Source: a virus. From it: a stretch of DNA of 64,000 nucleotides. The stretch's first letter is position 1. Each line of letters opens with the position of its first letter. Positions 1 through 64,000 of the stretch are shown here, in pieces. The DNA lies in IMG/VR virus record IMGVR_UViG_3300020202_000068, positions 1 through 64,000 of that record; one strand, 5' to 3'. Both the position numbers and the translations under genes were made by a program. The notes below the pieces were generated by a model. That model ran no database searches. It was not told where the DNA came from and was given only the letters and a program-made list of their open reading frames with translations.

Positions 1-53
1 AGGATCAAAGATAAGGCCTACGGAAAAGCTACTTCCCGGGACCAGGAACGATC

Positions 54-335
54 GTGTTTGTTTTCCCGCACGGCCCGTACGTGGGCGTTGAGTTTGATGA
101 CGTGGGCCTGGACAATGCTGGCCATTCCATAAATGGCTTGGCTGCTGATGGTCATGGATGGAACCTCACCTACGAGGAACTCGACCTAGTCAAGGAGCCA
201 CCCGCTCCTTCCTCTCAAGAACTCGCCTGGTTCGATTACTGCGATCAACTCGAAGGCAAGCTCTCCCGGACTGAAGAAGAGGCGAAGAACCTCTTCCTGG
301 CGGGATGGGAAGCCGCGAAGGGAGGTGGGCCATGA
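54..335 (+). CDS. SH3/CAP-Gly-like small protein, paralog 1 (5' end uncertain)
   Basis: VGVEFD..GH...G.GW...EELDLV pattern shared with the next two ORFs; ATGA overlap with next gene. Confidence 0.6.
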   Translation: MFVFPHGPYVGVEFDDVGLDNAGHSINGLAADGHGWNLTYEELDLVKEPPAPSSQELAWFDYCDQLEGKLSRTEEEAKNLFLAGWEAAKGGGP

Positions 336-2207: not shown

Positions 2208-2405
2208 ATGACAAGCCTGGAGATTAGGAGCCAACCGGCTCCTGAGTTCGGGAACTTCCACGTCTGGGCCTATCGTGGCGAGCAGTGGAAGCATTTAGGT
2301 TCTTTTCTCGTCCGCAAGGAGGCGGAAGCATGTTTCAAAGAGCATTTACGGGAAATCGCCATCCAGGATGGCTCGGACTACTTGTTTGGTCAGCGACCAG
2401 CATAG
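2208..2405 (+). CDS. hypothetical protein
   Basis: SD GGAGG, operon context. Confidence 0.55.
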   Translation: MTSLEIRSQPAPEFGNFHVWAYRGEQWKHLGSFLVRKEAEACFKEHLREIAIQDGSDYLFGQRPA

Positions 2406-3124: not shown

Positions 3125-3199
3125 CGTCCCGTAATCGGCCGCCCTAGTAATAGGGCTGCCATTTATCGGTCGTTCCTGTCACTAATCGAGGAGTCTTTT

Positions 3200-20111: not shown

Positions 20112-20445
20112 CCAGGAACTGCGGGATAACATCCTCCGGGACATCAAAGCCGCCTACCGGGACATCAAGCGGCTCAACTGCCAGCTCAATACGCCGGCCA
20201 TGAAGCGGGTCTATCGGACAATCTGCCCGGCCAGGAAGGCGAGGGACGAGCAGAAGTCTGCCTACCGGATCGGAATCATGGAAGCAGAGGATGAGCTGCT
20301 TCTGGCCTGGGATCGACTGCCTGAGGTAGATAAGCGGCTTCCGCCCACAGCCAGACTCAAGGAGGCGATGGCCTTCGGGGCTTCGCTCACGCGGCACCCC
20401 TATCGCCGTAAATACATGAAGAACCAGCTACAGCTGACGACCTAA
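20104..20445 (+). CDS. hypothetical protein
   Basis: SD GAGGG, operon context. Confidence 0.65.
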   Translation: MTNQELRDNILRDIKAAYRDIKRLNCQLNTPAMKRVYRTICPARKARDEQKSAYRIGIMEAEDELLLAWDRLPEVDKRLPPTARLKEAMAFGASLTRHPYRRKYMKNQLQLTT

Positions 20446-20523
20446 CGGAGCCGCAGGGATCGCGGTGGCCGGCAAGGACCGTCGGCCTGGCAAGGACGCG
20501 ACCGGGCGAAGAGGCCCATTTTT
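20445..20523 (+). ncRNA. CsrB/RsmZ-like GGA-repeat RNA ending in a terminator
   Basis: ACGGA, CCGC-AGGGATC-GCGG, GGCCGGC-AAGGACC-GTCGGCC, GC-AAGGAC-GC, then GGGC/GCCC-ATTTTT. Confidence 0.65.
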
Positions 20524-20538
20524 CGTCCATCACGCGCC

Positions 20539-22428: not shown

Positions 22429-22614
22429 ATGCCCAACTACCAATGGACCATCCCGAGAGCGTCAATGCAGGCTTACGGCAAGTGGTATGTTTACGATCCG
22501 TTCCTGGATCGCTTCGTCTCGAAGGAGCATGAGAGTAAGAACAGTAAAGAGCGTCGTGAGCGCGAGGCCCGTGAGCTGGCTGAGTTCGACGAGTGGGACC
22601 AGCGGCTGGATTAA
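22429..22614 (+). CDS. small protein ending ELAEFDEWDQRLD
   Basis: SD GGAGG; last + strand gene before the convergent late operon. Confidence 0.6.
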   Translation: MPNYQWTIPRASMQAYGKWYVYDPFLDRFVSKEHESKNSKERREREARELAEFDEWDQRLD

Positions 22615-22946
22615 CCAATCTCCTGGTAGGTCAGGTGGCCCATTACCGCTGCCGTGCCGGCCTCGATGCTCAATGACGCGCCGGCAGCCGTCTCTAGAAG
22701 TCCCATCGGGCAGTAATTGCCCTGCACCACCAGATCAGCTGTGGTCGTGACCATTACGCCCGAGAGGGCCGTCCCGGCGGCTCCGCTCTCGAACCGCACG
22801 GTCCCGGCGGCGGACTGGCGGATGTAGTACGCCAAGACGCGAATCTTCTTACCGGCAACGGCCGCTACCGCCTCTACATCGCCAGCTCCAGCGCTCGTGA
22901 TGACAGCGAACTTAACAGGAGCCAGGGACTGGCTGGGATGGTGCAT
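22611..22946 (-). CDS. virion structural protein (putative)
   Basis: Ala/Gly-rich beta protein at the end of the late operon. Confidence 0.65.
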   Translation of the reverse strand: MHHPSQSLAPVKFAVITSAGAGDVEAVAAVAGKKIRVLAYYIRQSAAGTVRFESGAAGTALSGVMVTTTADLVVQGNYCPMGLLETAAGASLSIEAGTAAVMGHLTYQEIG

Positions 22947-22964
22947 TATCGTAATCCTTTACGG

Positions 22965-23318
22965 TTAGTCTGATCCGTGGTATCGCGCGACGTACGCTAA
23001 TCGCCTAAATCCTACCCGATCACCAGAGCCGGTGGCGGTGATCTCCAGGTAGTACGTGGAGTTCTCCGTGAGCGATACCCCGTCTTCCAGGACCCCCTCG
23101 TAAACCCCCTGCGTGCCCGTCACGTAGGTCATAGAAACGGCGGAGGCTCCAGAGACCGCCGATCCAGCGGAGTTCTTGAGGGTGAATGTGAGCGTGGCGT
23201 CATTCAGAAAGGTCCCGGCCACCCGGTCGTACAGGCCGCTGCCAGGGACATCCCGATCGCCCCAAAAGACGACATTGTCCTCGCCGATGTATAAGTTACC
23301 GCCCTTGATTCCTGGCAC
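22965..23318 (-). CDS. virion structural protein, Ig-like (putative)
   Basis: GTG start with AAGGA; beta-strand-rich. Confidence 0.65.
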   Translation of the reverse strand: MPGIKGGNLYIGEDNVVFWGDRDVPGSGLYDRVAGTFLNDATLTFTLKNSAGSAVSGASAVSMTYVTGTQGVYEGVLEDGVSLTENSTYYLEITATGSGDRVGFRRLAYVARYHGSD

Positions 23319-23342
23319 AGCAGCATCCTTGCCGCAAAAGGC

Positions 23343-28019: not shown

Positions 28020-28370
28020 CTATTGCCTGTCCCGTTCATCCAGGACGCGATCGAGGTGGCGGTGTACGTTCTGGTCATCCGTGGCGGCCTTGGCGGCCTC
28101 GGCGATATGGCCCAGCATCTTGGGCACCTTCGACTGGACTGTGAAGCTCTTAGTGAGCATGTCCAGGTTCTTGGTATTAGCCTCCAGGCTTTCTGTATTG
28201 CGCTTCGAACAGTCCTTGAGCACGTCCGTCAGCTCGATCTGGCCCTGAAACCACTTCCCCCCGTACATCCAGATCAGGTACATCACCAGCCCGAAGATGG
28301 CCGTGAGGGGGCCTTTCTCCAGGAGGTAGGTGACGACGCTGCCGATGTCTGGTGCTTGCGCGAATAGCAT
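28020..28370 (-). CDS. holin-like protein (1 TM plus coiled coil)
   Basis: hydrophobic N-terminal helix; lysis-region position. Confidence 0.5.
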   Translation of the reverse strand: MLFAQAPDIGSVVTYLLEKGPLTAIFGLVMYLIWMYGGKWFQGQIELTDVLKDCSKRNTESLEANTKNLDMLTKSFTVQSKVPKMLGHIAEAAKAATDDQNVHRHLDRVLDERDRQ

Positions 28371-28396
28371 GGGGCGAATCCATTCGTCCTAATTAA

Positions 28397-34000: not shown

Positions 34001-34582
34001 CACACCCATCTTGGTGGCGGCATTCTTCGCGGCTGATCGGCGGGTGGTCTGCGTGGCCTCATCCCCGAAACTCAAGAGATCATCGAGCGTGGTGCGGGCC
34101 ATGGCCGGGGCGCGGCCCATCGTGGCACCTGCCCCCAGCTTGCCGGAGCGGCGGCCAGCGGCGGTCGCAGCCTTCGCCACGTCTCTCAGGGCCCCGGCCG
34201 CGTGAGCGACCTTCCCGGCCTTCGTGGCAGCCCCCAGCTTCGTGGCAAAACCAAGTGGATTGAGATACGTCAGCGGGTCAGTGGCAATATCCACCGCCAG
34301 CCCGGCACCCCAATTACCCCATGTATCCTTTCTTCCCACCATCCCGGCCTGTCGAAGCAGGTCCCGGCCCTCAACCCGGCCTTCCCCGGAGAGCGGGTGC
34401 AGGATCGGGGTAAGTGGGTTCTTGCCGGCCAGGGCGTTCTTAACGACGGCTCCCGGCGTTCCCAGGACGTTGCCGATATACGAAAGCCCACTCAGTCCGA
34501 CACTCTTGGCCTTCGAGAGGACGCCTTCCGGCTCCGGCGTCGGGCCGAGGAGCTGGTCTTCCGTGTATTTACGCTTAGCCAT
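31070..34582 (-). CDS. large internal virion/ejection protein (putative)
   Basis: 1170 aa Ala/Gly-rich helical; DIATDPLTY, F.FRNH, HYDYS...FER..MRR.VPFY.F.R.N motifs typical of podophage DNA-transfer proteins. Confidence 0.65.
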   Translation of the reverse strand: MAKRKYTEDQLLGPTPEPEGVLSKAKSVGLSGLSYIGNVLGTPGAVVKNALAGKNPLTPILHPLSGEGRVEGRDLLRQAGMVGRKDTWGNWGAGLAVDIATDPLTYLNPLGFATKLGAATKAGKVAHAAGALRDVAKAATAAGRRSGKLGAGATMGRAPAMARTTLDDLLSFGDEATQTTRRSAAKNAATKMGVNFDEILKEPLGGVANLWIPGMGTQTLGAGEGGAKLIEGLGKAASYIPGARAAAAAGSAVKRTVKGLFHGPSGGRFDKYGQVVSELASEKMPAARRQVVQQSLQFWDRFKEVDDKFRQAFKPAGQAAPDGWRELGPDEILQPGARTRLDVGSGKSYVFEGVKASAKPFREGDLVQASDRGNYGYVASVVDDGAEVHFTHPQTGATATVKMPFEKLTKANSADLPESLRAAHDPVARVFDRILRMTAETKGDVDAAIEKFASGAEIPAALKDDIAKLAEDAVTAKDELWRQNLEMGGKGHLIDETDEFQHFPRHMSKRGTGPLDTFRQLPTGHESMAGRQEALRHLRADQIEDLRMNPKYRAEGGAAEILKDFPNLGYRAKDDIVDSISHAKELAEYAKAASPDAVEKQKRLFDNMTFQDLGRYMLQAHKRNASFRAIHEAFHMNLGSDGVRLEDAFKHAGMDPNTALQHFWKLSGVPLDQLDAARVPAELANAAAAVIKTYENPEWANLVTNTLDTVNRYFKPAMVLVKPAFWFRNHTSGQYANLVSGYIENPADIADYVKAYGEVNSLWRKGDKSFERELEVMGILGADSTLEAHQHVYQGAMPPHQALPDNPLNIKATAKEVESQITADPSSLLGQGVKGVRKGAGTWMQTNAKMNRVVEYHNRAALYQYLKGKGFDPEQAAKIVTEVHYDYSTHAMAPFEREVMRRVVPFYVFSRNNLPWTIERLLTSPGGPMAQTIKALGREHRHEDLSPEYLSETASIPLGDLQDGSRRYLTGLGLGFEDPAGFATPSLKQVGLEAISRTSPVIKGPLEYMFGRSAFQKGPFGGRDLEDLDPPLGRTLANIGQLTGLRQSKEPVRYPGSGLMEHVLSNSPLSGVATSLRTLTDPRKNAATKAVNLGTGVHLTDVSPASMDRELRNRVARVEKQLGGRVFSSAYIPKDVIASLSPEKKALVAQLKSLDSLLDERGKKRKATKK

Positions 34583-34620
34583 TGATTCCTTCCTTGGAAT
34601 CTGTAATTCTAGTGAATCCC

Positions 34621-40191: not shown

Positions 40192-41904
40192 CTACTTCCG
40201 AGGACCTCGCTGCATGTCCTTGGTCTGCTTTCCCGTGATCTTTCCGGCGATATAGCGGCCAATTTTTCCAGCCCACGCCTGGGGACTGAATGGGTTGGTC
40301 AGGTCCATCGGCGATGCCGGTCCGGGCCGCATAGGTTTCTCGGTAAGGCCCAGGCCCAGTTCCTGGTCGCCGGTCGCTTCGCGGAGGATTTTGTCCTGGT
40401 CTTCCTTGTTTGTGACGCCATTCGCGGCTAGGTCGGCCCGGGCTCCTTCGATGTCACCGCCAGTAGCTTTATCTCGCACCGAACCAGTGACCTGTTCCGG
40501 CAGGCTGGGGGCCGTTGCCAGCGGCGGGGGCTTGGGCGCGGCTGGGCCGTTCTCAGCCTCCGTGCGGGCACGCTGGGCGTCCACGATAGCCTTGTTTCGA
40601 CCCTCAGCAATCTTCTCGTTGGAGGTGATCTGCCTCTCAGCTAAGCCGAGTCGCTTGTCAGCCATAAGCTGCTCACCGTTCATCCGTGCTTCCATTCCCT
40701 TGCGGGCCTGGTAGGCACCAGGATTGGCCGCAGCGAACCGCTCTTCCACGGTCAGGTGGCCACGCTTGACGCGCACCGCATCCCGTCGCCCCTTATCCTT
40801 TTCCTGGGCCTTGGCGGTCGCCAGCTCCCGCCGCTTACCGAGTTCCGCCTTGCGACCGGCGAGGTACTTCTGCCGGGCGGGAGCGCTGGCGGTATTGGCC
40901 TGCTTCGCAGCCTCCACCCGTTTGGCGGCACTGCTGCCCTGGTTCGGCGTCAGCGATCCACCAGGCGTCTCTGTGTACTGACCAGCTGGAAACTGAGGCT
41001 TCTGGGCAAGGTCAAGTTCCGGTCGTGGTGTCGGTTGGTAGCCGGTTGGCCGCTTATTGATGCTGGCCAGCATAGCCTCGCGGCCATTACCCTGGATGCC
41101 GATGTTTCGGGCAATCCGCAGGTCGTCCTCGGTGATATTTGGAGTCCCCTGACCGAAGTTCCCGCCGACCGTCGTGCGCGGCATGTGGCCGTGAGCTTGA
41201 TAAACCTGATTGGCTCCGTAGTTGCTTGGCAGCATTCCATTGCTGGCTGGGTTCGCCAGGGCATCTGCGTAATGCCCAGCACCGCTCACCGGCCCGCTGG
41301 GGAATCTCTGTTCGATATCCGGCATCGACCCTTGAAGGTTATGGTTGCCGCTGGAGATGGCTCTCAGGGCTTGTAGCGATGGATGATTATCGACCGGGCT
41401 CGGCGGCTGCATCGCCCGGGCTGCCGGGCTACCTGCGATACGGTCGGACTCTCCGCCAGGCGTGAAGATGCCGTACGGGGCATTGGGCCCGAGGTTCGGA
41501 TTCCGACCAGTCCTCATATACGCATCCCAGGCCTGAGCGTGGGGCAGCGGTTGTGCTGGAGCCGGAACTTGCGGAGCGACCGCCTGTGGCTGGACGGGTG
41601 TGCTTGGTTGTGGCCTGAGCGCCTCGGCGGCACCAGCTTCCATGCCTTGAAAAGGAGACGGCCCTGGCTGTGGAGGAGGCGGCGTGAGTTGGATGGGGTT
41701 CGGACGAGCCGCTACCGGGTGCTGCTGGCCCGCTACTGGCTGAGGCGTCAACCCAACGCTGGGAGGCCCAGGTTGAGCGTGGAGATACCCCTCCCGCGTC
41801 CCCGACGGGGCCATCTGCGGCCCCGGAGGCCGCCAGGGAGCCGATAATCCAGTCGGGGATTTGTATCCGGCAGTCCGCTTGTTCGCCGTGGTGGGATGGG
41901 GCAT
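40192..41904 (-). CDS. Pro/Gly/Ala-rich internal virion (ejection) protein, putative
   Basis: low-complexity N-terminus, helical C-terminus, late-strand position. Confidence 0.55.
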   Translation of the reverse strand: MPHPTTANKRTAGYKSPTGLSAPWRPPGPQMAPSGTREGYLHAQPGPPSVGLTPQPVAGQQHPVAARPNPIQLTPPPPQPGPSPFQGMEAGAAEALRPQPSTPVQPQAVAPQVPAPAQPLPHAQAWDAYMRTGRNPNLGPNAPYGIFTPGGESDRIAGSPAARAMQPPSPVDNHPSLQALRAISSGNHNLQGSMPDIEQRFPSGPVSGAGHYADALANPASNGMLPSNYGANQVYQAHGHMPRTTVGGNFGQGTPNITEDDLRIARNIGIQGNGREAMLASINKRPTGYQPTPRPELDLAQKPQFPAGQYTETPGGSLTPNQGSSAAKRVEAAKQANTASAPARQKYLAGRKAELGKRRELATAKAQEKDKGRRDAVRVKRGHLTVEERFAAANPGAYQARKGMEARMNGEQLMADKRLGLAERQITSNEKIAEGRNKAIVDAQRARTEAENGPAAPKPPPLATAPSLPEQVTGSVRDKATGGDIEGARADLAANGVTNKEDQDKILREATGDQELGLGLTEKPMRPGPASPMDLTNPFSPQAWAGKIGRYIAGKITGKQTKDMQRGPRK

Positions 41905-42120
41905 TGTCGTTCCTTCTATTGGCTAGTTGGCGACCATCCTGGCCGCATAACGATCAGTTATTTACCGGACAATCGTTCACTAGAAATCCTACCACAAGGC
42001 GATTCCAATGGACCTGTCGGGTGGATCGTCCGTAAAAATCCACGCCAGGACCAGGAAATGCTGGTGATCGGCCGTCAATGTGTCGTCAAAATGTCAATAC
42101 GGACAGGGAGGTGTCCCATC

Positions 42121-42318
42121 TTGGTGCTATCACGAAAAAAAGGCGAACGTCTTATTATCGGCGAGGACATCGCGATTGAGGTCGTCGAGGTCAGGGGAGA
42201 CCGCGTCAGGCTCGGCCTGGAGGCACCGGACTATGTATCCATCGTCCGGGAGGAGCTATTAGACGTGCTGCGGGAGCAGGCGCAGCGCGAGACTAGGCTG
42301 GCGAGGGCAGCCGGCTAG
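42121..42318 (+). CDS. csrA: carbon storage regulator CsrA/RsmA
   Basis: (M)LVLSRKKGERLIIGEDIAIEVVEVRGDRVRLGLEAP..V.IVREEL with the conserved R44 equivalent; TTG start after GGGAGG. Confidence 0.95.
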   Translation: MVLSRKKGERLIIGEDIAIEVVEVRGDRVRLGLEAPDYVSIVREELLDVLREQAQRETRLARAAG

Positions 42319-42656
42319 TCGGTAAGTCGGAAGAGCCTACGGAAGAATCGCGAGGCCCTGGCTCCCAGTGAGTTCAGGGTCTCTTCTCTTTGTGGGCATT
42401 TGCAGGGCTTTACCAGACCAAGCATCCGCTTGATCCGATTGATTCGTCGTGGGGTGATGCTGAATACTTCCGCGATGATAGAGACCCAGCAGCCAATCTC
42501 ATGGGCGAATGGCAGTCCATTGCAACTTGCCAAGATTTTTTCGTTTCCGTGAGGCGTCGATAGCGGCCTCGTGTGGCGCGTGCATGTTGGCCGGCGGCAT
42601 CGCACGCGGCGAATTCCGTTTACCGTGTCGCAGATGTCCTCCCAGTCACATCGCAT
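42315..42656 (-). CDS. Cys-rich protein
   Basis: KPCKCPQREETLN motif. Confidence 0.65.
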   Translation of the reverse strand: MRCDWEDICDTVNGIRRVRCRRPTCTRHTRPLSTPHGNEKILASCNGLPFAHEIGCWVSIIAEVFSITPRRINRIKRMLGLVKPCKCPQREETLNSLGARASRFFRRLFRLTD

Positions 42657-42657
42657 A

Positions 42658-43236
42658 TTATGGCACGAATGTTACGGATGCTGTTGAGCCGGCCCCCGCA
42701 CAGTATCGCGTTGGCGTGGCAAACGGGGCGCAGTTAACCGCAGCATCGCTGAATAAGGTGAACACCTCGCCCGACCATGATGCGCACGGGGTTGTCGAGG
42801 TTCTCCATTCATAAAAGCACGTTCCCCCACCTGCGATCGAGAGCAATGCCGCTCCGCCGCTTCCGTTGCCGAGAACGCTCATTCCCGACCCCGAAAAGAC
42901 AGTTCCAGGGCAAGGAGTCGGGTCAGGTCCGCTGTCGGCCGGCGTCATGCGGTAGTTGCAGTTTGGAACGTCAAATAAATCGTCGCAGACATAAGTGGCA
43001 TTCATATTTTCGCATGCTGTGCATCCGGCGTCTGCCATTCCCGCGATCACTACTGAGTAGTAGCTCGGGAAGCAATCACAGGCTGCTACGCAGCAACCAC
43101 ACCCCGGCCACCAGCCGAATCCCGCAGCGAACACAACAAAGGAAGCCTCCAGTGACCATGTCGACAGAGCGATAGCGGTCAGGCACACGAGCCCCTTGCG
43201 GATGGTCGGTACTAGAGGGTGTTCGCGCATCAACAT
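42658..43236 (-). CDS. Cys-rich tail-tip protein (putative)
   Basis: GWWPGCGCC...CDC; many Cys. Confidence 0.6.
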   Translation of the reverse strand: MLMREHPLVPTIRKGLVCLTAIALSTWSLEASFVVFAAGFGWWPGCGCCVAACDCFPSYYSVVIAGMADAGCTACENMNATYVCDDLFDVPNCNYRMTPADSGPDPTPCPGTVFSGSGMSVLGNGSGGAALLSIAGGGTCFYEWRTSTTPCASWSGEVFTLFSDAAVNCAPFATPTRYCAGAGSTASVTFVP

Positions 43237-43865
43237 TGAACCCACATAAGCGCCGGGATACCATTGCCGATCGTCACTCCGCAATACTTTCCGTTGACGC
43301 TCGTAAGCGCTGTGCCACGGTTAACGACGCCCGTAATGTTCATCGAGGAGTCTGTTTGGTAGGTCGTGCCGACGTGCACACTGACAGTGCAGGTATTGCC
43401 CAAACTGACGTTTGTATCGTCAATCTTCCCAATGACCGTGTGAATTCCTAACCACTGAGCAACGACGACGTTTTGCCCGGCAGAGGTTGTAGCGCCGCCG
43501 ATAATTCCATAGCCGTAGTAATTTAGTTCCAGGGTGTGCTGCCCGTGCTTGGGACCATAGACCGCGCCGGCGGATGGGGCGCTGCCGTTGTAGCGCACAA
43601 AGCCTGGCTTCAGGAGATCGGCAGCCCAACCTTCACTGGAACTGCTGGCTCCGATCGCCCAGGGGCCAGTGACGTAATAGGCCCCAAAGTTGAACTGAGT
43701 GCTGGTGGAGTTGGGCTTGATGACAGACAACACGGGCTCGCCGTCTGAGGTCGTGACAGTGCCGTTCGCCAGGACCACGGAATGCGGCGGAATCACTGCT
43801 CCGGTCGCGTTCTTGACTCGGAACCAGTTGCGACGAAAGGATGGGGCGATTTCGTTGGAGATCAC
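43230..43865 (-). CDS. tail protein (putative)
   Basis: VKNATGAVIPP.SVV; beta-rich. Confidence 0.65.
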   Translation of the reverse strand: MISNEIAPSFRRNWFRVKNATGAVIPPHSVVLANGTVTTSDGEPVLSVIKPNSTSTQFNFGAYYVTGPWAIGASSSSEGWAADLLKPGFVRYNGSAPSAGAVYGPKHGQHTLELNYYGYGIIGGATTSAGQNVVVAQWLGIHTVIGKIDDTNVSLGNTCTVSVHVGTTYQTDSSMNITGVVNRGTALTSVNGKYCGVTIGNGIPALMWVQC

Positions 43866-49234: not shown

Positions 49235-49376
49235 TGGCGAGCATCCTTGCTCTGGTTATTTGATCCGTATAAACGCTCCTGGAATTCATTTCGGAGCGTC
49301 TCCAAGTCCCAGCTGCCACGGTCTTCATCCTCCCACTGCGGCTTTCTTGCTAGATGCGACAGAAGGAGTAGCTCGA

Positions 49377-49847
49377 TCATGGATTCAATTCTCGCAACCA
49401 CACGACAACAACCAATCGGCTGATGTTGCAATTGGGGTATTTCTTGGGGTTACTCAGCGACTCCCCCGAGCGGATGACCCTGCATACATGCTCGCTCGGA
49501 TCAGTGCTGTTTACGATTGTAACCGAGAGCCGTTGGTCGGTCAGTCTGCGGCGGACCAGCTCCCGCCAGGCTTGCATCTGGTCCCCGGACAGCCGGGCGT
49601 CATAGTCGTCCTTCTCGACGAACACGATCCCGCAGGTGTAGCCAATATCCTGGGCCCCGATCACCCCAGCTGCGTACTGCTCCCCGAGGTCGTAGATCGT
49701 GACCCCACGGAGCGGCTCCCCCTGGATCAGCCAGGAACCACGAACCTGGACCTCCTCGTCTGCCATATTGTCGGGCTGGAGGTCTTTTATGAGGTCTCGC
49801 AGGGCGGCCATCACCTGACCGTGATTGGAGCCAAATGACTCGGCCAT
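49377..49847 (-). CDS. tail completion/terminator-like protein
   Basis: position between adaptor and tube; TAATG coupling. Confidence 0.55.
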   Translation of the reverse strand: MAESFGSNHGQVMAALRDLIKDLQPDNMADEEVQVRGSWLIQGEPLRGVTIYDLGEQYAAGVIGAQDIGYTCGIVFVEKDDYDARLSGDQMQAWRELVRRRLTDQRLSVTIVNSTDPSEHVCRVIRSGESLSNPKKYPNCNISRLVVVVWLRELNP

Positions 49848-51043
49848 TAGGGCTGCGTCCCTCCGGTTGTGAGGTCAGCACTGGCGACAATGTCGGCTAG
49901 GTTACTAACCATCTTCCCGCCGGGCTGGGTTTCCTCCATTCGCTGGTCAGCAGCCATTGCCAGGCTCAGGGCCCGCTCGTACCGGGCCTGCCGCTCTTCG
50001 TAGCCCTTCCGGTCGCCTGGGGCGAACTTCGCCTCACAGCCCAGCAGGAAGGCGTTCCGCATAGCTCCGGGCTCGATGTCGATCCGGCTGGAGATGCGGT
50101 AATTACTTCCCGAGAGGGTGGTGTCGGCGTCTTGTTCGAGGATCAACTCGGTGGCGGAGTTGCGGGTCTTGATCACCCGCTGCATGGCGTACGGCTCCAG
50201 CCGGTTCTTGTCGATCTCCCCCTGAAAGTCTGTGGGAATCTTTACCGATCCGGTGGCACTGAACCGCATCACGCACCCCTCATGGGCAGCGGTGAACGTC
50301 GTGCTCGTGCCGGTGACCGTGGCGGAGTCGGCCGTCGTGGCCACCGTCCCGATGCTGTGGTAATCCAGGGTCTTTAATGGCTGGGGCCAAAAGAGTCCCA
50401 GAGCTTGGTAGGTGATGGCCGAGGCTGGGGCAGGGGCAAAGTGGATGGCCAGTCCCGAAGCATATCGCTCGGACCGAAACACTGAATACATTCTTGGCGT
50501 GCTGGCGGTTCTGGCGATTCGCTGCTCGGCGATAATATCTCCGGGGTCAACGCACTCAACGAGTCTCCCAGGGGAGGAAGTGTCATAAAGGGAGAGGAGC
50601 TTACGAAGGTTATCGGGGAGTTCGTAGGTGTCTCTAGCAAGCGTATAAGACGTTCCCGACGCAATATCTCTCGTCGGAGCGTCCTTCTCATCCAGAACCA
50701 CCACCGTCGAACTCGTGCGCGTAGTGATCCCATAACGGTTCCCTGCAATCCAAAGAGCGTATTTCGTCACGTCGCTGGGCCAGGTCGTGCTGGTCAGCGT
50801 CACTGAGCGGGTCGAGGCCGTATAGGCGACCGAGCCGGTCGTCTGCTGGGCTGCTGTGGGGATCGTGATGGGCCGGTAGTAGTATCGCCAGTTCCGCCGC
50901 ATGGCGATCTCGGCGTACATCTCCTGCACGGCCCGCGTAGCCATCCGGCGACTACGGGGCGTTGAGTCTCCTGAGAGCACGGAATCCAGGACGTGATCGA
51001 CACAATCCTGGACCGTGAGGAGTGGATAATTGATTAGGCTCAT
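49847..51043 (-). CDS. head-tail adaptor protein with inserted beta domains
   Basis: V.E.Y..I..RRNW.Y, YELPDN..KL, FAPAP, Y...L..A...D motifs. Confidence 0.7.
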   Translation of the reverse strand: MSLINYPLLTVQDCVDHVLDSVLSGDSTPRSRRMATRAVQEMYAEIAMRRNWRYYYRPITIPTAAQQTTGSVAYTASTRSVTLTSTTWPSDVTKYALWIAGNRYGITTRTSSTVVVLDEKDAPTRDIASGTSYTLARDTYELPDNLRKLLSLYDTSSPGRLVECVDPGDIIAEQRIARTASTPRMYSVFRSERYASGLAIHFAPAPASAITYQALGLFWPQPLKTLDYHSIGTVATTADSATVTGTSTTFTAAHEGCVMRFSATGSVKIPTDFQGEIDKNRLEPYAMQRVIKTRNSATELILEQDADTTLSGSNYRISSRIDIEPGAMRNAFLLGCEAKFAPGDRKGYEERQARYERALSLAMAADQRMEETQPGGKMVSNLADIVASADLTTGGTQP

Positions 51044-51073
51044 ACGCAGCCCTCCATGGCTGGAGGACTAGGC

Positions 51074-51739
51074 TTAGAAGCCGAAAATCTCGATCAGGAA
51101 CTTACCGGCCGTGTAGGTGCCGACCGTACCAGCCGCACCGCACGTCAGATATAGATACTCGGTCGAGAGCGGGACGGTCGTGGCACCCTTAACCGTGCCG
51201 TTCGCCCAGGCCCCACCAGCGGTGATTACCGCCGTCTCGGCCAGCGAAGCGATGCCACCATCGAACACACCCGTGCCTTCCGTGGCCGAGTAGAGGTCGA
51301 TGTCGGTGACACCCGTGGCAGGGGCTTCCAGGCAGGTCATCCGTACCGCCAGGATCGTGGTCCCGCATTCGGCCGCTGTGAGCTTGGCGATGTAAGCCGC
51401 CGACCCACCCTGACCGATGATGTCCAGGTCCGTCGTCGAGGACTGAAGGTCCGTGATGTCGATCAGGATCGAAGTGACGTACAGATTGCCTTCCCGGCGG
51501 AGGCTGTTCTTATAGACCGTCCCGGCACCGCCAGTGACGCCAGCCCCAGCACCGGTGGCCAGGCCGGATGGATTCAGGACCACGCCAGTAGCGCCCTTGC
51601 TGGAATCCAGGACCAGCGCCTTCGAGGCCTCAGCCGTACCAGCCGTAGTCACGTCGTAGATGTCTCGGAACTCTTTCGAGGCTCCGATACTACCGAGGGC
51701 CGAGTTCAGGCGGTTCTTCAGGTTTTGGGAGAAAGACAT
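51074..51739 (-). CDS. virion structural protein
   Basis: TAGTAEASKALVLDS, YTAGKFLIEIFG. Confidence 0.65.
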   Translation of the reverse strand: MSFSQNLKNRLNSALGSIGASKEFRDIYDVTTAGTAEASKALVLDSSKGATGVVLNPSGLATGAGAGVTGGAGTVYKNSLRREGNLYVTSILIDITDLQSSTTDLDIIGQGGSAAYIAKLTAAECGTTILAVRMTCLEAPATGVTDIDLYSATEGTGVFDGGIASLAETAVITAGGAWANGTVKGATTVPLSTEYLYLTCGAAGTVGTYTAGKFLIEIFGF

Positions 51740-51774
51740 CGGGGGGAATCCTTTCCTTGAGGCGATGCTTTGCC

Positions 51775-52577: not shown

Positions 52578-52877
52578 TTACTCCTCTGAGAATGGGATTG
52601 GTGGCATGTACGACTGAACGACCTGTTCGCCTCTCGCGGCCCCCATAGCCACGGCCAATCCCCTGTCGATCTCCATCTCGGGCTCATCAGCAAGCCGCAG
52701 ATTGTTCAGGAAATTGGCGTACTGCGAGGCACGGCGATGATGGTCTGGCCCATAAAAGCAAGTCACCATCGCGTTATCACGGAGGTACGGTGTATTGACC
52801 GGGTGGCACTCCACTCGCGTGCAGCCGCGATATGCCTGGTCAGGCATGACGTTGATTAGGTAATCGCAGTAGTTCAT
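52578..52877 (-). CDS. hypothetical protein
   Basis: ATGA overlap with portal stop. Confidence 0.5.
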   Translation of the reverse strand: MNYCDYLINVMPDQAYRGCTRVECHPVNTPYLRDNAMVTCFYGPDHHRRASQYANFLNNLRLADEPEMEIDRGLAVAMGAARGEQVVQSYMPPIPFSEE

Positions 52878-55800
52878 TTCTTACTCCCTGAGGGTTTCGG
52901 CTTGGCTGCGGCTACGGCTTTTGTAGCCTGCACTTTCGCCTGTGTCGTTTGTTTGGTGCTATCCACTTTGGCCTTCGTGGCCTGCTTGGATTGCTCGATC
53001 TTCTGCTGGCCCTGGGCCTTATCGAGCTGCATCTTCTGAGCGCCCTGGGCGAGCTGCTGGCCTCCCTGCGCCTTCTGGAGCTGAAGCTGCTGCCGTCCCT
53101 GAGCAATCTGAAGAGCCCCCTGCTCCTTCGTCACGGCCAGGTCCACCTGACCCTTCTCCTGCTGGAGCTGGAGGTCCTGCTGATGCTCCTGTTGTTTGAA
53201 CTGCATGTCAATCTGCTTTTCCTGAATCTTCAGTTCCAGCTCGACACGCTTGGCCTCTAGCTCAGCTTGCAGCTTCTGCATTTCCATCTGGAGCCGCTGG
53301 ACTTCAGCCTCCTGCTCCATCTGGAGTTCCTGCTGCTTGAACTGGGCTTCCATTTGAAGCTCGACCATCGGATTGGCCTGGGCCTCGCCCTGGAGCTTCA
53401 TGGCCTCGGCCTGGAGCTTCTGAACCTCTGCCTGCTTCATCTGCTGATCCAGCTGGGCGTTCGGATCATTCGGGTCCTTCTGCGGGAACATGAGTCCGTC
53501 CAGCTCCATGTCGTGCAGTTCCGCGAACTTCCGCATGTAGCCGTTGGCCGGCTCGTAATCGCCGGAGAGTTCCCCGTACTTCTGCACCATTGGCAGGAAG
53601 CGGGTCCCGAACTCAGAGAAGTTGTCGATGTCTCGATCCTTGTTTGGCCGGCGGATACTGGCCGCTGCGACCTCGTACCTCATCTGCCGCATGATCAGCT
53701 CGTGGTCGGCGTTCTCGATGTACTGGGCCCAGAGAGAGGCTCCCGTGCGGCCCATGAGCGGGGCCACGTCCTTGCTCTTCACGAACATCCAGGCGATCAA
53801 GGCCTCGACGCTGGCCACCCGGCTCTGCCACTCCACGACCTTCTTCTGCATGTGCTCGGGACGCACCCCGACCGCTTGCTTGCGGGCGTTGGTGGTCTCG
53901 GCCGTGCGGTCCTGGGTGCCGCCTTCGTTCTGGCCATACACGAACGGGGTCATACCCATCCGCTTATCGAACAAGCTGTTCAGTAGCTCCAATACCTCCC
54001 AGGGGTCCTTATTAATGTCCTTGCCCTCGACGAGCTGGATCATCTTCTTGACATCCTGATCACCGCCGATGGGAATCCCGAAGACGCTCATATCGTCGCC
54101 GTCTTCGAGCTGCTTCTTCAGCTCGTCGTGGTACTGGCTCATCACGGCCCACATCTGCCGGCTGGATTGCCAGGTGCGGTTCACGAGCCAGGAGACAATG
54201 GCGTTGATCGCCTTTAGCTCACCCAGAGCGGGAGCCAATGGAGGGAGTCCGTATGGACTGTCTGTGTCCTGGTAGAAGATGAGTCGCTCAACAGGCCATC
54301 TATCATCGGTCCAGAGAGGGATAGGCCACTCGAAATGTGATCTAACCTCTTCAGAACTAGCTCCGCTCCTAATTTTGTCGGATGGGCAGTTGAGTGGGTA
54401 CGGGCAATCAGGGCAGATCGCAAGGTAGGCGTAATCACCGACGGTTTCCTCCAGCTGATTCTTGAGCATGTCCGGCATCCCGGTCATCCGGCTGCCGACA
54501 CCGCATTTCGACCAGATTTCGTACCAGACCACCAGGTCGTTCGTCTTCCCGCTCTTCCGCTCTCCGGTGGCTTGGCCTTCCTGGCTCATGGCTTCGGCGT
54601 AATGCCAGCCTGACTCTAGGGAGGCCTTGCCTTTGAGAGCGCCTTTAGGGAGCTTGAACTTCCGCTCGACCTGCCAGTGGGGCTGGATGTGCTTGCGGGC
54701 CACCCACTTACACTGTTGGGAGGTCTTGAAGTCAGGGTCGTAGATCAGGTCTTCCGGGGGGCAATGGAAGCAGCCAGTGAGCTGGAGATCGGAGCCCGGC
54801 ATCGTATAGGGACCCGGGATCAGGCAGCCCGCCCCCTTGAGCATGGCGTCTAGGACCGCCAGTTCGTTATGGCCCGAGAGCCCGTCCCCCGGCATTTCCC
54901 GGGGCGTGTAGTTCAGCCACTGCTGCATCATGTGCCCGACGATTTTGTCGCTGGCACTTTCCTGGGCAGCTTGCTGCTGAATGAACTGATAGAGCTGCTG
55001 ATCGGGGAACAGCTCGGGTGGGATTTCCAGCAGCTTTTTGCTCGTAGCTGTGCGATGCGGTACGTCCCATAAGAGATTGGGGCCGAAAACCGCCACATAC
55101 TCGAAAGCCTTGTTGATATTGATCCGAAAGCGGGGAGCCTTCACTCCCCGCCAGAACTTCTTGGCGTACAGCGGGTCCCACATGGCAGCCGCTGACTTGC
55201 CGTAGAACATGACGCAATTGCCGCTAATTAGCGGCTTGCCGTTGCGGCGTGTGATCAGCGTACCGTTCGGGACGGTGGCGCAGTACACCATTCCGTCGTA
55301 CTGCTCCGTGTGGTACTTCAGCTTAATCTCGTCGCCGGTGTGTCGCTTTAGAGAGGCTCGCTTGCCTTCGCTCCAGGAGGTCACGAGGTAGAGCTTGCCG
55401 CTCATCCCGGTCCTGGTTTCGAGGCCTGGGTCGGTGATCGCGTATGGTGCTGGCTGTCTCTCGCTGATCGAGGCGCTGCGGCCGATCTTGAGCCACAACT
55501 CCTGGATGTCATCGGCAAGCTGTTTGCTGGCTGTTCCTGATATGGCATGGCCGTGGCGGACGTGGCCGTCACCGGCCAGATACCCACGCAGGAACGCGCG
55601 GATCACGTTCTGGGGGGAGTCTTTAACCCACTGAGGAACCCGCTTGTCGTAGCAGCTTGTGCCGAACTGGCGAAGGTATTCGCACAGCTCCTTGCTGGTG
55701 AATGTGTACGACTTCATCAGCTTGCTATACGGCGGAGCTGGGAACCCGACCCGCTTTGCCAGCTGCTCGTAATACCTGCGTCCAGCCGTCTTTTTCTGCG

Positions 55801-56383
55801 CAATGCCAACTCGATATGGAACGCGAGCTTTCTTCTCGCTCTTTTTCGAGCACCAGCCTTCGGCAATGTAAAAGCCAAGCCATTCGGCGAAGTCAGCCGG
55901 GTCGGTGTCGCCAACGAAATCAGGCAATCTCGGCTTAGTGCCATGCCAATTGGCTGAGGTCAGCTTTAGTTGCTCGCTACGGCGAAGGGAGCTGGCTTCC
56001 TTCAGGGCGGCCCGCCCGGAGTGTGGCGGGAAAAAGACCATTCGGTGGCCTGGGGTCACCATGGCGTCAAGAGACTTACCGGCAAAGCGGATCATCTCAC
56101 CGGCCCTGTGGTGACGGACCAGCCTGGTAGGAACCTGGAACTCGATTGTGTCGGTTTCCAGGTTCACGGTCCCAAGCGGCTCGTCGCCGGTTAGGTCACT
56201 GAAGAGCATCCAGCCGGTGCTGGTGAGCACCTCTGTTTGCTCGTCATGGCATTCATCCGCCACTTCCTTCCACCGCTTGCGGGCGGGGCAGGTCAGCGCA
56301 GACTCCAGCTTGGCTAACCAACCTGTAACAATAGGGCGCAGGAATTCATAATTCCTGTCCTCGAAGGCTGCCAGGTCTTGCAT
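52874..56383 (-). CDS. portal protein (P22-like, Q-rich C-terminal coil) containing an intein
   Basis: DAMLKGAG, PEDL.YDPD...CKWVA, RTAET motifs; position after TerL. Confidence 0.85.
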   Translation of the reverse strand: MQDLAAFEDRNYEFLRPIVTGWLAKLESALTCPARKRWKEVADECHDEQTEVLTSTGWMLFSDLTGDEPLGTVNLETDTIEFQVPTRLVRHHRAGEMIRFAGKSLDAMVTPGHRMVFFPPHSGRAALKEASSLRRSEQLKLTSANWHGTKPRLPDFVGDTDPADFAEWLGFYIAEGWCSKKSEKKARVPYRVGIAQKKTAGRRYYEQLAKRVGFPAPPYSKLMKSYTFTSKELCEYLRQFGTSCYDKRVPQWVKDSPQNVIRAFLRGYLAGDGHVRHGHAISGTASKQLADDIQELWLKIGRSASISERQPAPYAITDPGLETRTGMSGKLYLVTSWSEGKRASLKRHTGDEIKLKYHTEQYDGMVYCATVPNGTLITRRNGKPLISGNCVMFYGKSAAAMWDPLYAKKFWRGVKAPRFRININKAFEYVAVFGPNLLWDVPHRTATSKKLLEIPPELFPDQQLYQFIQQQAAQESASDKIVGHMMQQWLNYTPREMPGDGLSGHNELAVLDAMLKGAGCLIPGPYTMPGSDLQLTGCFHCPPEDLIYDPDFKTSQQCKWVARKHIQPHWQVERKFKLPKGALKGKASLESGWHYAEAMSQEGQATGERKSGKTNDLVVWYEIWSKCGVGSRMTGMPDMLKNQLEETVGDYAYLAICPDCPYPLNCPSDKIRSGASSEEVRSHFEWPIPLWTDDRWPVERLIFYQDTDSPYGLPPLAPALGELKAINAIVSWLVNRTWQSSRQMWAVMSQYHDELKKQLEDGDDMSVFGIPIGGDQDVKKMIQLVEGKDINKDPWEVLELLNSLFDKRMGMTPFVYGQNEGGTQDRTAETTNARKQAVGVRPEHMQKKVVEWQSRVASVEALIAWMFVKSKDVAPLMGRTGASLWAQYIENADHELIMRQMRYEVAAASIRRPNKDRDIDNFSEFGTRFLPMVQKYGELSGDYEPANGYMRKFAELHDMELDGLMFPQKDPNDPNAQLDQQMKQAEVQKLQAEAMKLQGEAQANPMVELQMEAQFKQQELQMEQEAEVQRLQMEMQKLQAELEAKRVELELKIQEKQIDMQFKQQEHQQDLQLQQEKGQVDLAVTKEQGALQIAQGRQQLQLQKAQGGQQLAQGAQKMQLDKAQGQQKIEQSKQATKAKVDSTKQTTQAKVQATKAVAAAKPKPSGSKK
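55217..56251 (-). mobile_element. intein with LAGLIDADG (DOD) homing endonuclease, 345 aa
   Basis: E|CHDEQTEVLT..GW, VTPGH, WLGFYIAEG, FLRGYLAGDG, VYCATVPNG..ITRRNG....GN|C. Confidence 0.93.
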
Positions 56384-56400
56384 TTAGGCGTCCTTGCCTG

Positions 56401-56868
56401 TTAGGCCGGGGCCGGCAGGATGTCCGGCGGGCGTCGCTTCACCAGGGGAGCGGTCTTTCGCTCCTCCTGCTTCTTCTTAAACAGGTCCTCGTTCGCTTTG
56501 GCGTTTTCCTCGCCAGCCCGAAGGTTGGTTTCCCGTTTAGCGATCTCCGAGCGATGGAGGTCGTAATCCCCATCTTCGATGTCGCTCTGCCGGACGTAAT
56601 CCCAGGCCCCGTTGTTGCGGGTTCCGGGGTTCGGCTTCTGGTGAATTTTAGCAGAGACGTGGTACACGCCGGGCCTGTGCTGGGGAAAGCTGTTGATCGG
56701 GAAGACCACCAGCTTCAGCCGCCCGGGCCCTTCGATACCGCTGATCTGGGCCGGAACGGGGTGTTTCAGGTCCCCGCCCACGTACCAGACCACCTTCTCA
56801 CCCACCGGGGGAGTCGGCTGGAGGTTCGCTTTGTCCTCCTGAATTTCCTTCCAAGCTACCTCGTTCAT
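56401..56868 (-). CDS. hypothetical protein
   Basis: ATG 56868 behind an AAGGA hairpin. Confidence 0.65.
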   Translation of the reverse strand: MNEVAWKEIQEDKANLQPTPPVGEKVVWYVGGDLKHPVPAQISGIEGPGRLKLVVFPINSFPQHRPGVYHVSAKIHQKPNPGTRNNGAWDYVRQSDIEDGDYDLHRSEIAKRETNLRAGEENAKANEDLFKKKQEERKTAPLVKRRPPDILPAPA

Positions 56869-56997
56869 CGGAATCCTTTCCTGGGGTAACAAAAATAGTG
56901 AACGTCATGTCCCCGAACGGCATGTTCAGATCGTAACGCCCGTCAAGGAGCAGCTCCGTGCCGTCTCCTAAATTCTCATCGAGCCAAATCGCACTCA

Positions 56998-62041: not shown

Positions 62042-62680
62042 TTAGAACAACTGAACGTCGATCAAAATGTCGGCGTTCGTGTTGCCAGTCGTTTTGGCGG
62101 ACATCGCTCGGGCGAATTTGTAGAGCTGGTTGCTGTTGGCGAACGTGATGTTCGTCGTGACGCCAGCTTCCGAGATCGCGGGAACCACACGGCCGGAGGT
62201 CGTCGAGTGCGTCGAGGCGGCACCCGTCGAGTTCACCAACCAGTCGTCCACCGCAATGACGTTCGTGCCGTCAGCCGCGAGGCCGGTGAGGGCGAGCGTC
62301 GGACCTCGGACGGTCAGCCAGAAGTAGTCGTTGTTCGGGCAGCCCGTGGAGGGGAGCCATTCATCGACGATTCCGGCGATCGCCCGGTCGGGGCAGAACT
62401 CGGCGTAGCCATCCACCTGCTTGCCGCGCTGACCCGATTTCCAGGTCACCGCCATCTTCGGCAGGAGGGCCACACCACTCGAATTCCGTACGAGGATGCA
62501 GACCACTTCGCCACCCGAACGCGGAGCCTTTGGCCCGGTGCCCGAGTAATCGAGGTCTTTGAAGGTCTTGATGATTCCCTCAATGGCCTTGCTGGTCGTG
62601 CCGGTTGAGTCGGCAGTCCGGTTGGGGCCAGTGAGGTAGGTCTTCCCGCGCTGGGGAAGGGCAACAACATTGTCAGGCAT
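62042..62680 (-). CDS. capsid decoration/cement protein (putative)
   Basis: directly after MCP; VRNSSG.ALLP, GIVDE, FWL.VRGP. Confidence 0.7.
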   Translation of the reverse strand: MPDNVVALPQRGKTYLTGPNRTADSTGTTSKAIEGIIKTFKDLDYSGTGPKAPRSGGEVVCILVRNSSGVALLPKMAVTWKSGQRGKQVDGYAEFCPDRAIAGIVDEWLPSTGCPNNDYFWLTVRGPTLALTGLAADGTNVIAVDDWLVNSTGAASTHSTTSGRVVPAISEAGVTTNITFANSNQLYKFARAMSAKTTGNTNADILIDVQLF

Positions 62681-62754
62681 TGTGAGAAATCCTTTTCTCG
62701 CTAGTCAGTTTTTGCCTTTTGGCGAATACCCTGAATCCTGAGGGGTTAAATGGC

Positions 62755-63867: not shown

Positions 63868-64000
63868 CGCTTTTCATCCTTGAAAAGGCCGGCGTAGGGC
63901 AGGCCGCCCAGGTCAGCGTCGTGCTGGCCCTAGGAAGGGCGTGATGCCTACTACCGAAATCTCGTCGTTCAGGCCGCCCCGCTGTGCTGCCGGTAAGCGT

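Follow-up and report, generated by a model that had tools for sequence, protein, structure and literature searches.

A stand-alone planctomycete-type csrA in an uncultured phage and candidate CsrA sites in the ribosome-site hairpins of its late genes

Phage T4 RegA is a phage-encoded translational repressor that acts at the ribosome sites of phage messages, its own included, and its sites are unstructured stretches of early messages. The phage CsrA proposed here would resemble RegA as a phage-encoded binder of several of the phage's own ribosome sites, but it has an unrelated fold and its candidate targets are hairpin loops of late genes. A second parallel is offered by the CsrA-FliW-flagellin system of B. 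subtilis, in which CsrA restrains the translation of a high-copy structural protein via a Shine-Dalgarno (SD) hairpin; it differs in that a Pfam FliW domain was detected neither in the phage nor in five related planctomycete genomes. The SELEX-derived CsrA consensus is RUACARGGAUGU, in which ACA and GGA are 100% conserved and ARGGAU forms a hexaloop (PMC7652899), and E. coli csrA is autoregulated through four mapped leader sites, one of which lies over the SD (Yakhnin et al. 2011, reviewed in PMC7652899). An initial annotation of the present DNA remarked that csrA genes are known in some phages, mostly without targets, and the published and archived genomes agree: csrA occurs in 30 of 2517 phage genomes (PMC7366521) and in 81 of 50,697 phage records, and the first functional test, a knock-down in 2025 that resulted in smaller plaques, did not report targets (PMC11879866). 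Host manipulation has been proposed for such genes elsewhere (PMC11879866, PMC7366521). Like the proteins of Pseudomonas RsmM-type phages, of Vibrio phages and of phage PTXU04 (gp28), the protein described below is a small, single-domain, phage-encoded CsrA; unlike these, to which targets have not been assigned, it belongs to the planctomycete type, is at most 48% identical to them, lies in a virion module and is found together with consensus sites on late genes of the same phage. Phage csrA has been catalogued since 2020 with one knock-down phenotype, and the locus presented here supplies candidate targets on the phage's own capsid and tail genes. Our literature search found no paper on CsrA sites over a phage's own late genes.

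The gene was found in an uncultured phage, IMG/VR virus record IMGVR_UViG_3300020202_000068 (77,276 bp), of which positions 1-64,000 make up the stretch of DNA analysed, hereafter the window. CheckV places the completeness of the 77,276-bp contig at 100%. The first 149 nt (window 1-149) are repeated at contig 77127-77276 apart from a single indel within a run of A, which suggests that the genome is complete and either circular or terminally redundant; IMG/VR lists the record as linear. An IMG/VR search with the 515-aa neighbour protein and an INPHARED search with the capsid protein returned no relatives of the phage. The initial annotation had described an intact csrA with a TTG start, on the plus strand amid minus-strand virion genes, and this description is confirmed by the open reading frame at 42121-42318, its match to the Pfam CsrA family and the flanking head, tail-tube and terminase-like genes. 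The minus-strand neighbours include the major head protein, the tail tube, the terminase-like gene and a 1169-aa intein-bearing protein (52874-56383), whose LAGLIDADG intein-type domain (Pfam, 52.8 bits) is probably an intein in a large virion gene, the portal or another. A divergent gap of 216 nt (41905-42120) lies between csrA and a 570-aa minus-strand gene that starts at 41904. The further description of csrA as antisense to the late operon is correct as to its orientation, which is opposite to that of the flanking virion genes, but the relation is positional only; a strong terminator-like hairpin separates csrA from the minus-strand genes upstream.

The coding sequence comprises 65 codons and ends with TAG at 42316-42318. 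Its 65-aa product scored 69 bits against Pfam CsrA (PF02599; cut-off 27) with residues 2-48 covered by the profile, a six-frame search returned CsrA at 69.3 bits, and the PHROG match was phrog_9500, 'CsrA-like regulator'. The single small domain fits the approximately 55-75 aa of the CsrA/RsmA family. Alignment to residues 2-55 of E. coli CsrA indicates that the equivalents of L4, R6, V40, R44, E45 and E46 are retained. According to the alignment to structure 1y00, the E. coli RNA-binding residues L4, R6, V40, V42, R44 and I47, of strands beta1 and beta5, correspond to L3, R5, V39, I41, R43 and L46 of the phage protein, while the position of E. coli L2 is taken by the initiator Met. R5, R30, A35, R43 and E45 are invariant across 17 CsrA relatives, and every invariant or nearly invariant position of this family is kept in the phage protein. 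We consider it highly probable that the phage CsrA is functional, and a dimeric protein binding GGA-containing RNA is its most likely form.

Database relatives point toward the Planctomycetota. All six species-genome matches to the phage CsrA (6/6) fall in this phylum at 43-58% identity, the best identities (66-67%) come from ENA assembly contigs of 678 and 2721 bp, and the JGI metagenomes reach at most 65%. The probable host is a planctomycete. Five related planctomycete genomes each contain 1-12 CsrA-family matches. Phylogenetic analysis, which the initial annotation had proposed as a check, placed the phage CsrA on an unresolved polytomy of a 73-row tree. Relatives of the phage CsrA subtype are encoded in 226 further IMG/VR stretches. 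Many of the top database matches are tandem two-domain CsrA proteins.

The gene is furnished with signals of its own. An SD of sequence GGGAGG (42106-42111) stands 9 nt before the TTG and 6 nt before an ATC codon (42118-42120) that occupies the start-codon position of the homologs (MLVLSRK...), the local reading being ATC TTG GTG CTA. The 75 viral csrA homologs with a readable start all begin with ATG, GTG or TTG followed by Leu, and the nearest metagenomic proteins likewise begin MLVLSRK. From this comparison, an ancestral ATG was probably lost to ATC, and the second codon, TTG, now serves as a weak start. Downstream, 34 nt past the stop codon, a 13-bp intrinsic-terminator-like hairpin is followed by a U-rich tract (UUCUCUUUGU, 42352-42393, plus strand; -21 kcal/mol, z -2.08); when read on the minus strand, the same hairpin is a weak fold (z -0.64). 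A sigma-70 scan of the plus strand before csrA detected no sigma-70-like promoter. The word CTGTCAC/A has 11 intergenic copies in the genome, located 15-50 nt before plus-strand genes and often directly past a terminator-like hairpin. These copies, of the form aCTGTCAC/A-nAA, stand at window positions 3176, 5150, 5739, 7982, 8790, 12848, 16784 and 20574 and at positions 71244, 71999 and 73619 of the full contig, and they are likely an early promoter or transcript-start element without a sigma-70-like -35. Before csrA, a one-mismatch copy (ATGTCAA, 42091-42097, plus strand) has its mismatch on the invariant C and is therefore weak as a promoter candidate. An 8-mer, GTGAACGA, located 68-69 nt before three minus-strand starts, among them that of the 570-aa gene, was also considered as a shared element; the similarity ends at the 8-mer, which is likely due to chance or to start-codon context. 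No Rfam family matched within 41800-42700, and tRNA-Arg was the only match in the entire window.

The csrA SD is contained in a possible hairpin, GGACA-GGGAGG-TGTCC (42101-42116, plus strand), in which the string ACA-G-GGA-GG-UGU approaches the SELEX core ACARGGAUGU. As in E. coli csrA, there is a GGA within the gene's own SD, where CsrA, if bound, could keep ribosomes out; unlike the four sites of the mapped E. coli leader, the SD site of the phage gene is the only credible one, and it is coupled to a TTG beside a lost ATG. Relative to the SELEX site, ACA, GGA and UGU are kept, and an additional GG that separates GGA from UGU enlarges the loop by two bases. The ACA-N-GGA core was found at 2 of 100 ribosome sites in the genome, csrA being one of the two, and the shorter CANGGA, which csrA contains as ACAGGGA, occurs at 10 of 40 minus-strand and 4 of 60 plus-strand ribosome sites. 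Any GGAGG-type SD contains GGA, though, and the hairpin is not the dominant fold. Taken alone it has a stability of -6.8 kcal/mol (z -0.07), no better than shuffled sequences. When upstream context is included, ViennaRNA favours UGUC-AAUACG-GACA together with GGGA-GGUG-UCCC, and the SD GGA is then unpaired with a probability of 3-10%. A perfect stem of at least 5 bp around the SD GGA was found only in csrA among 60 plus-strand genes, against 0.5 expected among the 39 with a GGA; such a stem around a given SD GGA arises by chance in approximately 1.3% of genes, making the csrA hairpin mildly unusual and not striking. The covariance model built from eleven late-gene hairpins, described below, did not match the csrA site up to an E-value of 10, and the csrA loop, read as GGGAGG or as the octaloop AGGGAGGU, differs in size and register from the ANGGAN hexaloop of the late hairpins. 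Viral csrA homologs display such a hairpin at their own SD little above chance (stems of at least 4 bp in 8 of 75, at least 5 bp in 3 of 75). The earlier claim that the SD is held in a hairpin survives as a statement about the letters and the stem of at least 5 bp; it is weakened by the shuffle-level stability, by the competing folds and by the absence of a hit to the late-hairpin model. Autoregulation remains a reasonable but unproven reading, and self-repression through the SD site, as judged from sequence, is possible at somewhat less than even odds.

Hairpins of a more regular kind surround the ribosome sites of the minus-strand genes. Among SD-bearing minus-strand starts, 12 of 29 contain a perfect stem of at least 4 bp around a GGA loop, against a null mean of 1.8 (0 of 2000 shuffles reach 12). 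Stems of at least 5 bp number six (0.44 expected) and those of at least 6 bp number three (0.10 expected). Plus-strand genes present the 4-bp feature at 3 of 39 starts with 2.2 expected. We defined the late operator hairpin as an ANGGAN hexaloop closed by at least 3 bp and ending 1-5 nt before a start codon. In an annotation-light count the share of ANGGAN hexaloops was 13 of 74 on the minus strand and 3 of 72 on the plus strand; the background amounted to 2.1% across other csrA-bearing loci (1.55 Mb) and to 3.7% across planctomycete genomes (275 kb; binomial P 3e-6). The enrichment on one strand over these backgrounds indicates that the hairpins belong specifically to one class of genes in this phage and are general neither to csrA-bearing phages nor to the likely host phylum. 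The circuit to which the initial annotation had assigned csrA is in this respect statistically real. Because the hairpins were chosen for their stems, a count of covariation among them is partly built in.

The SELEX loop AAGGAU is present in seven of the late hairpins, all on the minus strand. That of the major capsid gene, CUUUUC-AAGGAU-GAAAAG (UUCAAGGAUGAA, 63868-63889), ends 2 nt before the ATG and, on the basis of its loop, is a likely CsrA target. The others are GAGAA-AAGGAU-UUCUC of gene 62042-62680 (62681-62702), GGA-AAGGAU-UCC before the ATG at 56868 (56865-56886), the identical GGA-AAGGAU-UCC of gene 51074-51739 (51740-51761), GAGC-AAGGAU-GCUC of the tail-tube gene (49235-49256), (C)GGC-AAGGAU-GCU(G) of gene 22965-23318 (23317-23338) and CGUA-AAGGAU-UACG of gene 22611-22946 (22946-22967). 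Variant loops on the same strand are seen in AGGC-AAGGAC-GCCU of the 1169-aa intein-bearing gene (56382-56403), CAGCC-AUGGAG-GGCUG of gene 49847-51043 (51044-51065), GAUUCC-AAGGAA-GGAAUC of the 1170-aa gene (34582-34603) and CGA-AUGGAU-UCG of gene 28020-28370 (28370-28391). Compared with sites of the SELEX and RsmE-hcnA type, whose hexaloop is closed by AC/GU (PDB 2jpp family), these late hairpins share AAGGAU or ANGGAN hexaloops and short stems at the SD.

The explanation that best accounts for these observations, with a probability of about 0.55, is a stand-alone planctomycete-type csrA cassette whose product mainly targets the phage's own late messages, with possible feedback at a single site. 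In this reading the 65-codon frame, with its strong SD, weak TTG and dedicated terminator, was inserted in reverse orientation between minus-strand late or virion genes. Its main targets would be the late messages of at least 11-13 minus-strand genes, the capsid, tail-tube and portal-like genes among them, in which the ribosome site is enclosed in an ANGGAN hexaloop hairpin. CsrA bound to these hairpins would block entry of the 30S subunit, and it may also damp its own translation via the one off-pattern site, ACA-G-GGA-GG-UGU, with a loop two bases longer. That the phage CsrA, and not host paralogs alone, reads the late-gene hairpins is modestly favoured by the sequence evidence. A fuller scheme can be put forward tentatively, and we would not bet on it: a private Csr circuit, in which CsrA would silence late messages, including those of the capsid, tail-tube and portal-like genes, via AAGGAU hairpins, csrA would be self-limited, and relief would come from titration by the late messages or by a GGA-rich RNA at 20445-20523. 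If true, it would describe a virus that uses CsrA as a timer or homeostat of virion protein synthesis, of which we found no example in the literature. Self-regulation alone would be a modest extension of E. coli biology, and the value of the locus lies in the link between csrA and the late-gene hairpins; given candidate targets and a possible feedback site, the function of a phage CsrA becomes a simple question of binding and reporter assays.

Two other readings concern the region before the gene. The initial annotation pictured E. coli-style autoregulation at multiple sites over a transcribed leader of approximately 130 nt (42008-42110), one site lying at the SD. Its motifs are where it placed them (ATGGA at 42008, GTGGA at 42021, CAGGA at 42046 and 42052, ACGGA at 42099, GGACA at 42101-42105, GGGAGG at 42106-42111 and TGTCC at 42112-42116), the four upstream words spanning 42008-42056 on the plus strand. 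A spacing of approximately 50 nt, such as that between 42046-42056 and the SD, is within the range that one CsrA dimer can bridge. Six GGA words in 131 nt (41990-42120), one of them within the SD, would also recall the four leader sites, one over the SD, that are bound by E. coli CsrA (PMC7652899). The genome mean, however, is 2.8 per 131 nt, and six or more are reached in 7.8% of plus-strand windows. The 146-nt leader folds with the stability of shuffled sequences (z 0.09), and most upstream GGAs are base-paired in the ensemble of predicted folds, with mean unpaired probabilities of 0.04-0.67 according to the assumed 5' end. Moreover, the only promoter-like word, at 42091, would if used yield a leader of approximately 25 nt and leave the four upstream GGA words outside the transcript, and one gene call treats the region, which shares the csrA frame, as coding. 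The multi-site leader is unlikely on this evidence; the four upstream words are probably incidental, and the supposed leader at 42008-42120 may be untranscribed or even coding. The coding possibility corresponds to the second reading, an 86-aa product from ATG 42058; coding sequence and the SD of this longer frame would then account for the leader hairpin and both CAGGA words. One public annotation of the 77,276-bp contig lists this product (P0157), AGGA at 42047-42050 stands 7 nt before its ATG, and the frame is open from 41896. Two other gene callers chose the 65-aa form, however, and GGGAGG is correctly spaced for TTG or ATC. The in-frame extension (42058-42120, plus strand) has a negative codon score (-0.19 per codon; csrA, +0.11; phage-gene median, 0.23), contains rare ATA, AGG, TCA and TGT codons and is present in no homolog, the 75 viral homologs and the closest relatives all starting at MLVLSRK. 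The extension is probably not coding, we favour TTG 42121 over ATG 42058 by about 4 to 1, and the longer product is as doubtful as the multi-site leader. An upstream peptide, MLVIGRQ, was also examined as a csrA remnant; its local DNA and protein alignments scored no higher than shuffles, and the likeness is due to chance.

The remaining two readings concern the role of the gene as a whole. As a host-directed moron, csrA would be independently transcribed and would retune host mRNAs via the host CsrA network, and the late hairpins would either be read by host paralogs or do no more than expose weak SDs in loops as an aid to initiation. In agreement with this, csrA has an SD and a terminator of its own, is oppositely oriented and has a below-typical codon score (0.107 per codon, against a phage-gene median of 0.233); related planctomycete genomes have up to 12 CsrA paralogs, and host manipulation has been proposed for other phage csrA genes. 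A moron does not readily account for hairpins that are limited to one strand class at approximately 5-fold over the planctomycete genome background, nor for late loops that match the CsrA consensus and not a stronger SD. In addition, no tyrosine integrase was found in the phage, only a 292-aa serine recombinase, and a lysogenic-conversion role for csrA is therefore without support. We judge the host-directed role to be rather unlikely, yet less so than either reading of the upstream region. The gene might instead be a decaying remnant that lost its ATG, is expressed little or not at all and carries its hairpin by chance. An ATC where every homolog has a start codon, the weakness of TTG as a start and the low codon score would all fit decay; the intact frame, the conserved family positions and the retained strong SD and terminator speak against it, and we consider it very unlikely.

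Several further observations were made in the course of this analysis. A role of ribosome-site hairpins as a general trait of csrA-bearing phages was considered and set aside, as the annotation-free count was noisy and the stricter hexaloop ratio gave no general enrichment. In three csrA-bearing IMG/VR contigs an ANGGAN hairpin encloses the ribosome site of csrA (AACA-AAGGAU-UGUU in L018, AUUUC-ACGGAG-GAAAU in L031 and UCGA-AAGGAG-UCGA in L060), and in each, 2-3 other nearby genes have similar hairpins; this pattern does not reach significance when corrected for multiple testing. The 3' end of the helicase operon (20445-20530) contains ACGGAG, CCGC-AGGGAUC-GCGG and two GGCAAGGAC words, followed by a GGGC...GCCC hairpin with UUUUU; the late-hairpin covariance model found no match in this interval, and titration of CsrA by its RNA is a possible role. 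Beyond csrA, approximately 900 nt (42319-43229) that extend to a 211-aa gene display phage-like codon usage in no frame and include a 208-aa Cys/Gly-rich ORF (42658-43284, minus strand) and a 113-aa ORF, both with negative codon scores; it may be non-coding, or else a tail-tip gene that is atypical and was acquired recently. The late-hairpin model also located two extra sites, TCCGC-AAGGAG-GCGGA (2308-2329, plus strand), which precedes a plus-strand ORF of 59 codons by 3 nt, and CAGCA-AUGGAA-UGCUG (41227-41248, minus strand), inside the 570-aa gene that adjoins csrA.
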